Source: Eledone cirrhosa (taxonomy: Eukaryota). From it: 64,000 nucleotides of DNA. The notes below the pieces were generated by a model, which saw only the letters and a list, made by a program, of their open reading frames with translations, was not told the DNA's origin and made no database searches. The first letter of the stretch is position 1. Every line of letters starts with the position of its first letter. Below, piece by piece: positions 2,101-64,000 of the stretch. The translations under genes and the position numbers were made by a program. The stretch lies in the NCBI GenBank assembly GCA_964016885.1, contig OZ024743.1, positions 360,716,001-360,780,000 on the forward strand, read 5' to 3'.

Positions 2101-2628
2101 AGAAAAATACCAGTAGGAGGCGAGACTGTTTGGTTACTGAAAACGTTAAAAGGTAATCGGGACACAAACAAGAGAAGAAACGTTCCCTTCGTCAGCTGTT
2201 TCCTACGGATCTTGGATGTTTCGGCGCTTAAAACAGAACATCGATCCGTAGCGCGCCCAAGGCCTTTTATCTATCAAAAGGCCATGAAGGAAAGAAGTGA
2301 TAGTGAAGAGAGAGGAAGAAAGAAAAAGGGAACAAAAAAAAGGGAGAAGGGGGAACACAGGTCAAAGGCACATGTATGTAAGCAACCGAAGAGAAAATAG
2401 ATCAAGTTATACCAAGCCGATAGGTATAAGCCCTGCGGCCATAATAACAGAAGAGCTATGTTTTTCCGTGGCGATTCTCAGTAAAGTGAGTGTAGGGAGA
2501 GAGAAAGACTGAGAAACCGGAAGTGTGAGGAGGACAGAGGAGGTGAGTAAGGGGGATAGAGTGAGAGAGGAAGAAGGGGCTTATGACGCACGTGCGACCG
2601 AGACCGAATGCAAGCAAATGGATAGGGA

Positions 2629-2663
<35 letters not shown>

Positions 2664-2769
2664 AAAAGGTAATCGGGACATAAAGAAGAGAAGAAAAGTT
2701 TCCCTTCGTCAGCTGTTTACTACGGATCTTGGGTGTTTCGGCGTTTGAAACAACATCGATCCGTAGCGC

Positions 2770-2772
<3 letters not shown>
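2101..2772 (-). mobile_element. Non-coding PLE terminal remnant with ~110-bp direct repeats (2146-2254, 2661-2770), flanked by (TA)n
   Basis: Direct repeats read directly; homologous to 45605-45960, which lies 3' of a PLE GIY-YIG fragment. Confidence 0.7.
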
Positions 2773-3120: not shown

Positions 3121-3311
3121 TAGGAAAATGTTTAACCCCGACGGCTGAGCTCAAGATGTTTCGACAGCTATTTCAGTCCAGAAATAGCCGTCGAAACGGC
3201 TTCAGCTCAGTCCTCGGGGTGAAACATTTTCCCATTACCCACTCTACTACCCTAAGTATTGAGTACTCTGGTGCGTTATGGTCCATCTGGTTCCTTACCA
3301 CACCTCCTACG

Positions 3312-11264: not shown

Positions 11265-12420
11265 AATAATGCATTCTTTATTAACCACAAGGGTTTACAT
11301 AAAGTAGACATTAAGGACAGTACAGGACAATACAGGACGGTACAAATGGGCATTTCTGCGTGTAAAAAAAATAGGATGTAACAAAAAAATAACAATGAAA
11401 AATTCCCCAATAGGAGGGAGACTTCCGAGGGACATTCGTGCAGAAAGCCCATTAAAAAGCCACAGTGACCCTGACCACCAGAGCAAGTGCCCTCTCCCAG
11501 TTTTCCACTTTTAATTTACAGACACATACTCAGAGTAGGCCCATTCACTCGGACCATTCTTGCTTCGCTCACCCATCTTTCAACAAAATGCTGGGAAGAG
11601 AGGACTTCCCTCTCTACCCTGATTTTCCTTTACAAATGAAATTTGAAAAGCTTAATCAGGGCATCACTGAAGAAGTAAGTGCTCGTCTTCAGCCCTTTCA
11701 AACGTGTCCACCATACTATCTCTTTCGCCATGGGCACCAGACAGATAAAAACTGTCTGCCCTTCCCGGCTAAAGGAAGAGGGTGGGGAAATCCTCACGAT
11801 GGACTCAGCTGATAGCCGGATCCGTCCTACACGCGACAGCAGGTGTTCGACATAAACCCACAAGTCAGCAATGCTCGGACACTGGACGAGTGCGTGCAGG
11901 ACGGTTTCGTCACCCTGCGCGCATCTCGGACATGCCCGGCTGACGGCACCTCCATGCCTGTAGAGTTTATCCCGAACTGGCAAAGCTCCTCGGTAGCACT
12001 TCCAGGCCAGTGATTTCTGGAAATTGTCCATAGGCCGCGTCCCGAAAGTTCTTCCGAAGAGATTGGCTAGTTGATTTTCGTTGACGCCTAGAGTTTCCCC
12101 AAGTAAGTCGTCGCTCTTTCCCTCCACTAATCCTCTATAGACTACCAAGGTGGAGTTTCCACCGATCACATTGCTCGATTGGTCGAAGCTGTGAGCGCCT
12201 GAAGACATTCCAGTCTCCAAGCCCTCCCTCTCGGTCTTCGCTTGACTCAGGACTGCAGTTCTGTCAAGGAGACGAACTGGGGAAAGACGCGCCTAGCAAA
12301 CGACGAATACACCTGATCACCGTCGAGGAAGAGGTGGAGATGTCGTAGCCTGAGCGCGTGTCTGCGCGCATCATCAGCCACGGGGTGCCCAGCCCTCCAC
12401 GTAGCGGGTGTTGACAGCAG
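11265..12420 (-). mobile_element. 5'-truncated Tx1/L1-clade LINE (ORF2 C-terminal zinc finger and 3' UTR)
   Basis: ORF 11630-12220 with CPRC..ETVLHALVQCP; highly similar to 62338-63490; AATAAA plus ATT tail. Confidence 0.85.
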
Positions 12421-22728: not shown

Positions 22729-22880
22729 TTAATGTTATTTTAAGAAATATTTGCTCTACGGTTCTTATATATTTTATATATATTTATCCATATCGAGCCC
22801 TCTTTGGATTTTAGTCTTCAGATTTATTATTATTACTCTTTGTCTCCCGCGGTTGAGCACTCTATTGACTTATATTCATC

Positions 22881-24961
22881 ATGCAGAAACAACATCTGAA
22901 TATTTCTACAAAGAACATACACGTACCAAGCAGGAAAACATACCTAAAACTCCTGATACAGAAAACAGACGCGTTCATTGAAAGGTTGCGTTGGCGTGCC
23001 TTTTATTTCGATAATCCGCGAAAAGCAGACAACAAACAGGATAAATTTGGGTTTAAAACCTATAATAACCCCCCGTGTAACCCAGCATTGCTACCCTTCG
23101 AAAATGATGTCTTGGAATTCATACGGCGTATCAAATCTCGGAATAGGAGCAATTCCTTCCAGCAGGACCCGAAGAATAGAATTCGTTCTATTAAGGATTC
23201 TAATGCCGTGCACGTCCATTCCGACAAAACTGGCAACCTATATCCAGTGGATAGCAGTACTTACCATCAACTACTACATAATGCTGTAACTAAGGATTAC
23301 CGTAAAACTAATCGGTGCGTCATCAATGAAATCAACGATGCTGGGTTTAAAATCACCTCTGATCTCAACATCCTGTACCGGACCGAACCTCTGGACCCTA
23401 TTTCTCCCCACTTTACTCTGAAGGATCACAAATTCAATTTTCCGAACAACCCCTCTATTCGGCTTATTAACCCTACGAAGTCCGATTTAGGTAGACTTAG
23501 TAAAAGGATTCTTGATAGAATTATACCTGAAATTAGAAGTTTGGCCCTTCTTGCACTGTGGAACAATTCTTTCGCGGTGATTCATTGGTTCAACGGCATA
23601 TGCAACAAGGAACATTGCCGTTTTATCCAATTCGACATCAATAATTACTACTCCTTCATCACTTTACCACTTCTCCTTAGAGCTATCAATTTCGCTAAAA
23701 CACTCACAGTGTTAAGGATTTCGAAGTCGATGTCATCCTCAATGCCCGTAAGTCGGTGATTAATTTCGACGACTATATTTGGATTAAAATATTCTATAGT
23801 ACCCCATTCGACGTGAGTATGGGCGCCAGCGATTCTGCGGAGGTTAATGATCTTATCGGCCTTTTCCTTCTTTTCTCTATCAAGGACGAATTCCCCAACG
23901 CTGGCGGTGGTTTGTACCGTGATGATGGTCTTTTGACCATGACTAAGTGTGGCCCTCGTGCTTGCGACAGGTTCAGAAAAGAACTCACAGACTTCTTTAA
24001 AGGCTTCAACCTCTCTATACAGGTTGAAGCCAACCTCTCGGTCGTTAATTACCTCGACGTTACCCTCAATTTATCGAATGGCTTGTATGACTCGTATAGA
24101 AAGCCGAATGATACGCTTAATTACATAAGTAAGCATTCCAATCATCCTGCCAGCATAACCAAGAACCTGGTAAGAAACGTTTCGTTGAGGCTTTCCCGTC
24201 TATCTACTAACGAGCATATTTTCAACGACCATTCCACTTATTACAATGAAGCTCTTGCTCGGAGTGGATTTATCGATAAGGTAGCATATACAGAGTACGA
24301 GTATAGATCTAGAAGTAATAGATCCCGTCGCATTATATGGTATAACCCCCCATATAATATGGAGGTGGCCACACCATTAGCTAAGATCTTTCTATCCATT
24401 ATTACGAAGCATTTTCCCCCTACACATACATATAATAAAATGTTTAATAGGAATACTATTAACATTTCTTACTCTACGACTCCTAACCTTGCACATAATA
24501 TTACAGCTTCAAATTTAGCTAAAGTACCTAGCCGTAGGAACACGTGCAACCCTGTAGTTAGTACTAACTGTAATTGTAGGAATCGGGTTGATTGCCCCTT
24601 ATCCGGGAAATGCCTCTCTAGTAACATTGTCTACAAATGTAAGGGTGAAACACGCACGTCCCGTAAGGCCTACATAGGGTTAACCGCCAATAGATTCAAG
24701 CAGCGTCTTTACATGCATACCCACTCTTTTCGTTACCCTCTAAGAAGGAATATGACGTCACTTTCAGCTTATATCTGGAGTCTAAAATACAGCCACACCC
24801 AATATAAGTTACACTGGGAGATCCTAGCTAGGGCTAGATCGTATAACGGAAATAAAAGATCATGTGACCTCTGCGCCGCTGAGGCCCTGGAAATACTCTA
24901 CGCCACAGACCACATCTTAAACAAAATATCTGAGGCAATTTGGGCTTGTAAACATAAATAG
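22881..24961 (+). pseudogene. PLE reverse transcriptase plus GIY-YIG endonuclease, one frameshift near 23710
   Basis: FIQFDINNYY, FDVSMGASDSAE, GLYRDDGL, YLDVTL, IIWYNPP, CNCRNRVDCPLSGKCL, IVY..YIGLT..FKQR..H, CDLCAAE, ILNK. Confidence 0.93.
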
Positions 24962-26171: not shown

Positions 26172-26236
26172 TATTTCATTATACATATTTCAGGGATACC
26201 ACATTAAATTATGGTATGCCTTCATCAGACAAAATA
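26172..26236 (-). ncRNA. Type I hammerhead ribozyme
   Basis: UAUUUUGU-CUGAUGA-AGGcAUACCA..UGGUAUcCCU-GAA-AUAUGUAU-A-AUGAAAUA; canonical core, 8-bp stem I with wobbles, palindromic stem III. Confidence 0.85.
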
Positions 26237-42228: not shown

Positions 42229-42948
42229 AGTATTAGGACGGTAGTAAAATCTAGCTGATATAAATGTATATATATAAAAGTAAATATTGAGTTAGAAACT
42301 GAGAATGGTGCCTTACAATTGAAATAGCTCGAGGAAAAAATTGATCTTTCTTTATTATATTAAATTATATTCTGAGTTTCTAACTGAATACATACTTTTG
42401 ATAAATTCAGCTCCTAGAATTATGTAGTGCTTTTTTAAATGTCGAGTTAATCTCGCTGCTATTTTTAGAAACATACGTTTTACGAGACACGTAAATATGG
42501 TCCCTAAATGTGGTGTAATTTTCTCAAAGAACAGGTAGCATATTATTTAGAATTTAAGTATCAGTAGAATTTGGTCAGATTAAACCTCACCAATACCAAC
42601 ACCAAGTCTATTCAATTTCTGGTTAGGGTTGTTTTTAGCAACCAACTATAATGACTGTATATGCCTATAAAATAGGGGTATTTTGGTCTATGAGACCTAG
42701 CTGTATTAGTGACACTAGTGTTAATATGCTCTTACCACTCATGTGGGGAGTGGTAGTATTGAATTTGATAGTGAAACATTCACATATGTAAACAGATATC
42801 GGTTCGTTTGAGAATGTGTATGCTTGTCAATAGATGTTAAAATTATAAGATGTTAAAATTATAATAATCAGCAGACTACTGATGAGGACATTTTATCTCT
42901 TGGTCTATTTTTATTCACAACCACCCAGCACGCCATTCTTCATTCATT

Positions 42949-45555: not shown

Positions 45556-45604
<49 letters not shown>

Positions 45605-45608
<4 letters not shown>

Positions 45609-46014
45609 CAAGAAACGAAGTGGGCTGTGCGGTTACTGTAAACAAAGCGTAAGATAGTGATATGGAAGTAAACAAGAGAAGAAACCCTTCATCAGCTGGT
45701 AACTGCGTTCATAGATGTTTCCGCGCATAAAACAGGACATCGAAATCGATCAGCAGCGCGCCCAAGGACTTTTATCGATGAAAAGGCCATGAGGGAAAGA
45801 AAAGAAAAAATAGTGAAGAGAGAAGAAGAAAGATACAAAAGGAAAGAGAAAGTACGAATTAAACAAACCGAATGGAGGGCGGTCATAGATCAATGGCACA
45901 GGAAAGTGAGTAACCGAGGAGAAAATAGAATAACTTACAACGAACCGATTGGACTTAAGTCCTAGGGTCAAATAACTGCGCTGTTATTCCGTGCGATCTC
46001 AGAAAAGTGGGTGT

Positions 46015-46073
<59 letters not shown>

Positions 46074-46120: not shown

Positions 46121-47030
46121 GGAAGTGAATATATTTTTGGAAGTGAATATAACTGCGGAGCAAAGTGAGTGTGATCGCACGGAAAACATTGCTCCGCAGT
46201 TATTTGACCAATCGGTTCGTTGTAACTTTTATAGCAATGTAAATTCCGCAAAAAAGCATAAAAGTGTCAATTTAACATCTATGTCAGAGCTATCGGCAAA
46301 CATTAGTAAAAGGGGAAAACATTGATGGTTGGCTAATAGGTTTCTTTCAAAAGTCTGACGGTATAGTTAGTGTTTGTGCTTAAGCGCTATTATAATATAA
46401 GTTTATATGCCAATACACGTTAACTCTGTATACCGTGCCCTCCATAGCAGCTGTCTGGTAATGCCTGCGAGTAAGTGTGTGTGTATAATGCTTAAACTAT
46501 GAGTAATAGGTCTAATACGGTATCATCGCTATCTGTTCGGCCGGTTCCATAGAGCAATATGTATATTTTAACAAGAATGAAAATATTCCATTACGAACTG
46601 TTTACAGTAATGCAAATATGCAAAGATCTACATAAGGATATTTAGAAAGTGTAAATAACTAAGAAAAATTTATATTTCTACCTAAGGATGCTTGGGTTTT
46701 TTTCTATCTTAGTTTGTAATTGGGAAGGATGTAAAGCCGATCTCTACCCACCTGGGGGATTTGAGGATAAGATATGTCCTATATATTCTGTGTTTACACG
46801 AGGTAACGAGTTCATCCTTTTTGTTTAACAATTGGTCCTTTACAAACAGTATCTGGATCGTTTCCTGCGAGCATAAATTGCACGGACAGCGTCCTCCCGA
46901 ATAAGACTCTGCCTTGGAAAGTAGGCTCCACGTTAGATGACAGGTAATTTTACTGTCTTGGAGGTCCCACATATGGCTAGAAAGTGCCGTAGCGTGTCGC
47001 CGGGCCGGGTTTCTAAATGAATGATGGTGG
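45605..47030 (-). mobile_element. 5'-truncated PLE (PLE4): GIY-YIG C-terminus, 3' UTR and terminal structured motif
   Basis: HHSFRNP..TALSSHMWDL..LTWSLL..CNLCSQE..LLNKKDELVTSCKH; 3' end abuts (TA)n. Confidence 0.85.
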
Positions 47031-62337: not shown

Positions 62338-64000
62338 ATAATGCTTTCTTTATTAACCAAAAGGATTTACATAAAGTAGACATTAAGGACAGTACAGGAC
62401 AATACAGTCGGTACAAATGGGCATTACTGCGTGTAAAAAACAAGAAACAGAGGATGTAATAATGAAAAAATTCCCCAATAGGGGGGAGACCTCCGAGGGA
62501 CATTCGTGGAGAAAGCCCATTAAAAAGCCACAGTGACCCTGACCACCAGGGCAAGTGCCCTCTCCCAGTTTTCCACCTTTAATTTACAGACACATACTCA
62601 GAGTAGGCCCATTTACTGGGGCCATTCTTGCCTCTCTCACCCATCTTTCAACAAAATGCTGGGAAGAGAACACTTCCCTTTCTACCCTGATTTTCCTTTT
62701 TAAATGAAATCTGAAAAAGTTAATCAGGGCATCACCGAAGAGGTAAGTGCTCGTCTTCAGCCCTTTCAAACGTGTCCACCATACTATCTCTTTCGCCATG
62801 GCCACCAGACAGATAAAAACTGCCTGCCCTTCCCGGCTAAAGGAAGAGGGCGGCGCAATCCTCACAATGGACTCAGCTGATAGCTGGATCCGTCCTACAC
62901 GTGACAGCAGGTGTTCGACATAAACCCACAAGTCAGCAATGCTCGGACACTGGACGAGTGCGTGCAGGACGGTTTCGTCGCCATGCGCGCATCTCGGACA
63001 TGCCCGGCTGACGGCACCTCCATGCCTGTAGAGTTTATCCAGAACTGGCAAAGCTCCTCGGTAAAACTGCCAGACCAAGGATTTCTGGAAGTTGTCCATA
63101 GGCCCCGGCCCGAAATTTCTTCCGAAGTGATTGGCTAGTTGATTTTCGTCGACGCCTAGATTTTCTCCAAGTACGTCGTCGCTCTTCACTTCCACTAATC
63201 CTCTATAGAACGCCAAGGTGGAGTTTCCACCGATCACATTGCCCGATTGATCGAGGGCTGTGACCGCCTGAAGACATTCCAGTCTCCAAGCGCTCCCTCT
63301 CGGTCTTCGCTTGACCCAGGACTGCAGCTCCGTCAATGAAACGAGCTGGGGAAATATGTGTCTAGCAAACGGCGACCACACCTGATCACCGTCGGGGAAG
63401 AGGTGGAGATGTCGTAGCCTGAGCGCGTGTCTGCGCATCATCAGCCACGGCATTCCCAGCCCTCCACGTAGCGGGTGTTTACAGCGGATGGATCGCCTGA
63501 CCATCGGAGCGCGTCCCTTCCACAAAAAGTGAAAGAGCAAACGCTCCAGCGCAGTCAGGCGGGGCTTAGGACAAGGTACGACGGTCAGGCGGTAGTAGAT
63601 GACGGACGCGATATACGCGTTAGCCACCTCCGCTCGATCTTTCAGGGATAGCTTCCCTAGGCCCATTTATGGGTGAGAGAAGCTACCCTGCTCGTCACCT
63701 CGTCCCAGTTTTTTTTTTCCGTCTGGAGGTCCGGACCGAACCAGACCCCGAGCAATTTAACCGGTCCGTCCAGCGCCCGACGACGCTGTTGGACGGCATG
63801 GGCCTTCTTCTCCAGGTGCCTAGCTGCAGGCCCACTGACGTTTCCTGGTTGAACATTGCTCCTGTCACCGCTTCGTATTCTCTTAGTGTAGTTCCGATCG
63901 CCTTGATGTGTTTGGCGTTCGACACCACTACGGTGACATCGTCCGCATATGCTGACACGGATCTTCCGCATCCTATTTCGCGCGGGACCCCCTCAACGTC
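62338..64000 (-). mobile_element. Young Tx1/L1-clade LINE ORF2 3' half (RT YADD, thumb, zinc finger) and 3' UTR; continues beyond window
   Basis: SAYADDVTVVV, KLLGVWFG, 360-aa ORF with CPRC..HALVQCP; ends in (TAA)n. Confidence 0.9.

Follow-up and report, generated by a model that had tools for sequence, protein, structure and literature searches.

A putative hammerhead ribozyme with non-circularly permuted blocks and a split stem II in non-coding tandem repeats of Eledone cirrhosa

Introduction

Can hammerhead blocks that stand in an order other than the circular one of types I, II and III still be closed into a complete ribozyme fold, and which strand would then supply stem II? This question is raised by a motif on the minus strand of the Eledone cirrhosa genome, located at 2184–2292 of the window, by which we mean the whole stretch of 64,000 nucleotides analysed here (contig OZ024743.1 of assembly GCA_964016885.1, positions 360,716,001 to 360,780,000). 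An original prediction made from the letters of this DNA had read the motif as a hammerhead of a Penelope-like element with non-circularly permuted blocks, possibly dimeric or switchable.

Relatives of such a motif have been described in several contexts. In the available parts of Eckert et al. 2023 (PMC10085705), hammerheads with the order cleavage site (UH), GAAA and CUGANGA (S-G-C) are named type SGC, cleave in vitro and are reported only from metatranscriptomes; none is given from genomes of known organisms, except one GCS candidate, and CUGANGA and its adjacent stem strands are assumed to be inseparable. The same pages report that type-CSG RNAs, of which two metagenome sequences are known, also cleave in vitro. 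Animal non-LTR retrozymes, as presented in the accessible text of Cervera and de la Pena 2020 (PMC7229834) and of the preprint by Li et al. 2026, consist of non-coding units in tandem, each with a single hammerhead, and are linked to Penelope-like elements; circularisation of the unit RNA is known for them from the same sources. For the Penelope-like Naiads, the sections of Craig et al. 2021 (PMC8557442) at hand state that canonical hammerheads are missing, that some elements carry core words outside the descriptors, that Naiads may spread better without hammerheads and that cephalopod Naiads are old remnants.

Results

Sequence and parts of the motif

The minus-strand string quoted in the original prediction was found at 2184–2292, with all hammerhead core nucleotides intact: C3-A9, G12-A14, A15.1-U16.1 and H17 are present at 2189–2237. 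The cleavage site comes first, followed by GAAA and then by CUGANGA, so that the circular block order of types I, II and III is absent. The order is indeed non-circularly permuted, as had been claimed, but it is not unprecedented, being that of type SGC (Eckert et al. 2023). Reading the same letters as type II or type III by eye fails at stem I.

Followed from its 5′ end on the minus strand, the motif opens with the 5′ strand of a clamp helix (2287–2292), whose 3′ strand (2183–2188) stands immediately 3′ of A9; this helix emerged from folding, and in the alignment of families A–D 93% of its cells are paired and two of four pairs show two-sided change. Next in the fold is hairpin P (2258–2286; 85% paired in A–D), which adjoins both the clamp and stem II without a spacer; in other families a hairpin of different sequence occupies this site. 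The 10-side strand of stem II (2253–2257) comes next, upstream of the cleavage block; it is the predicted donor of G10.1, and it is 98.7% paired and invariant in A–D. There follow the 5′ strand of a linker helix (2243–2251), seen in folds and alignments and equivalent to the stem I–stem II interaction helix of Eckert et al., the 16-side strand of stem III with H17 in a GUU triplet (2237–2242), read from the sequence, and the 1-side strand of stem I (2230–2236), which is 100% paired in A–D. The 11-side strand of stem II (2223–2227), identified in the A–D alignments, precedes G12-A13-A14 and the 15-side strand of stem III (2215–2222, sequence and A–D alignment), the 3′ strand of the linker helix (2203–2211, fold and A–D alignment) and the 2-side strand of stem I (2196–2202, sequence and A–D alignment). 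The catalytic core C3-A9 (2189–2195) is read directly from the sequence, and the clamp strand that closes the motif was obtained from the fold and the A–D alignment. As originally described, the 5-bp stem III, the 7-bp stem I and the 9-bp extension, here called the linker helix, are all present, and the cut in this copy is predicted between 2237 and 2236.

The folding energy of the copy at 2184–2292 is better than that of all 200 shuffles (200/200, z −3.6), and its nested minimum-energy fold contains the clamp, hairpin P, the linker helix and stem III. A search of the whole window against Rfam gave no hammerhead among the 150 of 214 weak matches listed.

Stem II and the predicted four-way junction

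A stem II of about 2 bp, formed by the strand 3′ of the core and the strand before GAAA, had been part of the original prediction, and this pairing turned out not to be a conserved stem. It amounts to at most 2 bp in 124 of 126 copies; in 15 copies of families A–D it never extends beyond 2 bp, with two of five positions pairing and 48% of cells paired, and in none of 13 copies of family G′ is either of the first two bases past the core a G. A stem II partner of at least 4 bp lies upstream in 107 of the 126 copies, a figure from a scan that covers more positions upstream than downstream and therefore needs a control. The strict arrangement, comprising the clamp, the hairpin, the upstream stem II strand and the linker helix, fits 37 of the 126 copies, as against 19 of 2,520 sequences in which family groups have exchanged their upstream parts and 7 of 2,520 shuffled ones; it fits none of nine G and none of four J copies, which are old and decayed. 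A looser descriptor (57 of 126 copies versus 163 of 1,008 controls) carried 12–16% false positives, and the strict one was used in its place.

The alignments point to the same structure. In the 15 A–D copies, picked by hand as well preserved, 93.1% of cells of the six-helix structure are paired and seven pairs show two-sided change, a result reached by 0 of 500 shuffles; in 12 hand-picked copies of families E, F, H and I, the values are 91.3% and 13 pairs, with three E rows off by one column at stem III and at 10.1–11.1. Covariation of stem I among genome-wide copies, which the original prediction had proposed as a check, was borne out by two-sided changes at three of five pairs in A–D and at four of seven in E/F/H/I, where stem III shows them at two of four pairs. 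In the 13 G′ copies 84% of cells are paired, compared with 31–44% when the alignment is slid, and an upstream G stands opposite C11.1 in 12 of them; covariation in these copies is not above shuffles, 62 of 500 of which reach it. The alignment-based pair counts cover families A–D, E/F/H/I and G′, with J and L left out. Since stem II is invariant within A–D, its covariation rests on the comparison between families: next to G12 it has 5 bp with the upstream strand in A–D and 6 bp of other sequence in G′. More generally, related copies can beat shuffles without any structure, so that we place the weight on whole helices that change sequence from one family to another.

Two registers can be distinguished at the base of stem II. 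In A–D and G′ the base right after A9 opens the clamp and 10.1 is supplied from upstream. In F, H and L, the base after A9 can pair with 11.1, giving a stem II of 1 bp, and the clamp begins one or two positions later, while either register is possible in E. In both registers the base of stem II would become a four-way junction. As judged from sequence comparison, it is the strand upstream of the cleavage block that appears to complete the conserved stem II. The original prediction had noticed that upstream strands could pair, and such a fold exists, but the label of an alternative, core-sequestering structure was wrong, since the strict descriptor, the A–D alignment and the G′ copies all identify it as the conserved fold.

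The opposite assignment of these folds would make the motif a switch, whose active state has a canonical short stem II formed by the two G that come after an unpaired nucleotide past A9, and whose upstream clamp and hairpin represent an OFF state reached by branch migration. The two G-C pairs it needs are possible in 15/15 and 14/15 of the A–D copies, F, H and L keep the canonical 10.1–11.1 pair, and the nested minimum-energy fold of the copy at 2184–2292 extends the clamp into G8-A9. The short stem is nevertheless impossible in G′, which lacks the G, and the nucleotide after A9, left unpaired by the switch, covaries with the clamp (U-A in 13 and A-U in 2 of the A–D copies, G-C in G′). We consider such a switch unlikely, and favour the four-way junction as the fold of the active RNA.

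Abundance, families and tandem units

Copies of the motif were searched for in 3.0 Gb of genome sequence. A strict pattern that prescribes 3 bp of stem I in addition to the block order gave 855 exact matches against 0 in the reversed control, and a pattern with stems I and II free gave 1,214 against 39. A third exact pattern gave 433 against 6, a set that includes an unrelated repeat tail. This abundant tail, which may be SINE-like and which was seen at loci L183, L196, L200, L205, L207, L208 and L228–L230, has GUH, GAAAC and CUGANGA in the same order; its helix stands apart from the core, and the tail was not classed with the motif described here. DNA searches with five family representatives returned 1,564, 1,147, 1,033, 448 and 162 first-look candidates, which are not copy numbers, 40 being scored per search. 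The retrieved loci contained 126 cores that fall into 11 clusters, two of them single-copy (the family letters used are A–J, G′ and L). The repeat is also present as contigs in three sequencing runs of one sample, of unrecorded kind, which do not constitute independent support; no RNA run was listed as containing it.

These controls bear on the objection that the motif is made of chance words or is an assembly artefact. It would agree with the result that eight loci of the motif gave no Rfam match at the gathering threshold, but it is refuted by the pattern counts, by the covariation and by the independent published consensus sequences described below, and its probability is negligible.

The motif is carried by about ten families of non-coding tandem repeat inserted in (TA)n, and it lies near the 3′ end of the unit; no coding frame was found with the unit in the loci scanned. 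Head-to-tail offsets are 515–727 nt in family A, 600–665 in B, 383–396 in E and 746–791 in C and D. In 21 of 30 A loci a (TA) run starts 50–111 nt past the core, in 24 of 30 B loci it starts 39–94 nt past it, and an inverted piece occurs at 20 of 60 loci, a count made without a background control.

Such an array invites the view that cleavage takes place only in a dimer or in trans between units; a possibly dimeric ribozyme had also been entertained in the original prediction. Tandem units do exist, and minimal Penelope hammerheads work as dimers according to the part of PMC4209133 that was available. Here, however, stem III has 5–10 bp and all helices close within one copy, which removes the requirement for a dimer; moreover, the next unit repeats the same cyclic order, so that dimerisation restores no canonical type. 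Cleavage restricted to dimers is accordingly quite improbable, and a monomeric fold is preferred.

The insertions cross the predicted cut site and end 40–110 nt beyond the core, which means that their template was either uncut or re-ligated. Templates that must have crossed the cut site count in favour of the switch. That copies do not end at the predicted cut would also suit a hammerhead-derived RNA structure devoid of catalysis, which would serve as a binding or priming signal for a retroelement protein. Sequence conservation has two sides in this respect. The original prediction had expected the blocks to be conserved above their flanks, and within family A they are not (departures of 4.3% versus 3.2% and 6.7%); across families and phyla, by contrast, CUGANGA, GAAA and UH are kept while every helix changes its sequence, a pattern that argues against a purely structural signal and makes this possibility improbable. 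The equality of core and flanks in family A and the absent covariation in G′ fit neutral decay after insertion and provide no support. We retain a catalytic RNA as the preferred reading.

Other copies and neighbours in the window

The motif at 2184–2292 belongs to a family-A non-coding tandem element on the minus strand (2069–2770), delimited from the sequence and homologous loci, which consists of one unit plus a truncated start with a period of 517 and is flanked by (TA)n. Both further copies named in the original prediction exist. The one at 2661–2770 (minus strand, 91% identity over 112 nt) is 5′-truncated, lacks the clamp and hairpin P and has a 2-nt deletion at the cleavage site; this copy is likely dead. 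The other, at about 45685–45790, is part of a family-B element (45568–46035, minus strand) with an inverted unit piece at about 46170–46230. The two features described for it, a GUC triplet and a compensatory exchange within the extension helix, were both seen, the exchange being a family-B trait, and C11.1 has been lost. The original prediction had placed it where other Penelope-like elements of the window carry a hammerhead; the analysis gave no ground for taking it as the terminal repeat of the nearby Hydra-type fragment. A family-L copy absent from the original prediction lies between (TA)n at 34297–34402 on the minus strand; more diverged, it has the same layout in the 1-bp stem II register, with an AUA triplet. 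On the plus strand at about 42860–42900, all that a 5′-truncated piece retains of a family-L-like motif is its 3′ half.

Other elements were noted in the window. Canonical type I hammerhead-like motifs can be seen by eye at 33344 (+), 52488 (−), 26228 (−), 52154 (+) and 49959 (−), that at 26228 being downstream of a Hydra-type frame. Decayed frames of Hydra-clade Penelope-like elements occupy 22869–24961 (+), 27436–29480 (−), 35100–37805 (−) and 46787–47017 (−); RWK-like and DKT motifs together with a C-terminal GIY-YIG are recognizable in them by eye, and Pfam gave no match. A short, near-perfect palindromic element, with similar ones in several loci elsewhere, stands beside (TA)n at about 3130–3240, and related LINE-type fragments with a zf-RVT domain are found at 11630–12292 (−) and 62584–63666 (−).

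The probable Naiad link and the search for a mobilising partner

Targets of the (TA)n type, partial tandems and inverted pieces are described for Penelope-like elements in the consulted portions of Craig et al. 2021 (PMC8557442), whose supplement, as available, has an octopus Hydra element likewise targeting (TA)n. All three traits are shared by the repeats described here and by Naiads; they are common to other Penelope clades and thus not diagnostic. A Hydra-type element was not taken as the partner, since Hydra-type sequence occurs at 17 of 230 loci and neither its distance nor its orientation is constant.

More specific is the RNA layout itself. Reading by eye a part of the 54 Naiad ends, we recognized the split layout at the 3′ end of ten published consensus sequences, from Beroe, one Clytia, three Acropora, two Morbakka (assigned by file order), Eulimnadia and two Octopus, that is, from a ctenophore, cnidarians, a crustacean and octopus. 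In this reading the Beroe motif has a stem I of only 2 bp, and that of Eulimnadia comes right behind the coding frame. The core is not followed by a G in the Acropora and Eulimnadia records or in both records from the Morbakka (cubozoan) part, so far as the excerpts go, and the short stem II required by the switch is impossible there as well. Eight other Naiad consensus sequences, nematode ones by their headers and file order, end by eye in a plain type CSG with block C whole. The split form and CSG have their cyclic order in common, as well as the linker helix, which makes a CSG reopened inside block C the best reading of the split form. In the excerpts of bivalve Naiad records, no such motif was seen by eye. 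Several arthropod Naiad ends have CUGANGA with other flanking helices that gave no fit by eye and may represent further variants.

In Eledone, the loci scanned contain no frame with an N-terminal GIY-YIG and a reverse transcriptase beside the motif, and no intact Naiad linked to it was found in the 3.0-Gb genome, where three Naiad patterns gave no match. A fourth gave six matches against two in the control, and the five regions examined contained a single decayed endonuclease remnant and, on the same strand, no copy of the motif. This absence agrees with cephalopod Naiads being old remnants. The remnant, at locus L239 on the minus strand and about 1077–1390 from the 3′ end, is an N-terminal GIY-YIG of Naiad type and stands beside a short Naiad 5′ motif, with no linked ribozyme motif in 7 kb.

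These comparisons support what had originally been proposed, namely a hammerhead whose blocks are non-circularly permuted and whose context is Penelope-like. From the sequences, the motif of the window is likely to be the missing ribozyme of Naiads, carried by a retrozyme-like non-coding derivative. In broader terms, we find it reasonably probable that Naiads across animal phyla use non-circularly permuted terminal hammerheads, most of them with an undescribed opening between A9 and stem II and with G10.1 supplied across a four-way junction, and that retrozyme-like derivatives of them have been amplified in about ten families here.

Discussion

Our analysis favours, with a probability of roughly 0.6, a self-cleaving hammerhead with non-circular blocks, the two chain ends of which would lie at the base of stem II and in which the four-way junction fold would be the active one. 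That the motif family is a ribozyme in one form or another appears very probable. The reading builds on the block order, the intact core, the complementarity of the strands, the covariation between families, the copy number and the tandem units ending at (TA)n.

The mechanism could be as follows. At the base of stem II, the clamp helix, the hairpin and the upstream stem II strand would form the four-way junction; RNA of tandem units would fold as a monomer and be cut 3′ of H17 (2237/2236). Two such cuts would release a unit of 0.4–0.8 kb, which could be circularised, and a Penelope-like reverse transcriptase/endonuclease, most plausibly of Naiad type, would copy the unit into (TA)n, in the way that has been put forward for retrozymes. 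Between families, the crossover of the junction would slide by one pair, being placed after A9 (A–D, G′), after a 1-bp stem II (F, H, L) or at either position (E).

If this is true, the statements of Eckert et al. that SGC hammerheads are confined to metatranscriptomes and that CUGANGA is inseparable from its stem strands need revising, and so does that of Craig et al. on Naiads lacking canonical hammerheads and perhaps spreading better without them. Animal genomes would harbour abundant permuted hammerheads, overlooked by type I descriptors and by Rfam, one further hammerhead topology would exist, and the role of ribozymes in Penelope-like transposition would become testable in a clade thought to lack them. 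The S-G-C order is already known from type SGC; what appears to be new is the predicted layout with a split stem II and a junction, together with the high-copy genomic occurrence in an animal. In the literature searched, mostly without subscription papers, we found no paper in which SGC or CSG hammerheads are assigned to Naiads or to the genomes of animals, or in which this junction is described, and no tested precedent for a junction directly after A9.

Comparison with the known systems, within the parts of the sources available, places the motif as follows. The crystallised hammerhead of Zhan et al. 2024 (PMC11300833), in which a 1-bp stem II is continued by a distant strand and which is active, resembles families F, H and L in combining a G10.1–C11.1 stem II with a distant-strand helix; it differs in the pistol-like connectivity of its loop pseudoknot, and is a precedent only for the 1-bp register and not for the one in which 10.1 comes from upstream. 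Like non-LTR retrozymes, the repeats are non-coding tandem units with one hammerhead motif each, but the hammerheads of retrozymes are of type I in units of about 300 bp, whereas here they are permuted, in units of about 380–790 bp that are dispersed and mostly truncated. With the Naiads of Craig et al. 2021 they have in common (TA)n targets, partial tandems and inverted pieces, as well as the RNA layout, which several consensus sequences show at their 3′ end, while the element of the window differs in having neither a coding frame nor an intact Naiad partner found in the genome. Type CSG has the same cyclic order as the motif, but keeps block C whole and opens between G and C. Type SGC (HRIMA-1) has in common with it the S-G-C order, a short linker between stems I and II, and a helix that connects these stems at their far ends and corresponds to the linker helix; in HRIMA-1, however, a stem II strand follows directly 3′ of CUGANGA, whereas in the window that strand lies upstream, the motif is predicted to open at a four-way junction, and it resides in an animal genome with at least 855 exact-pattern copies.
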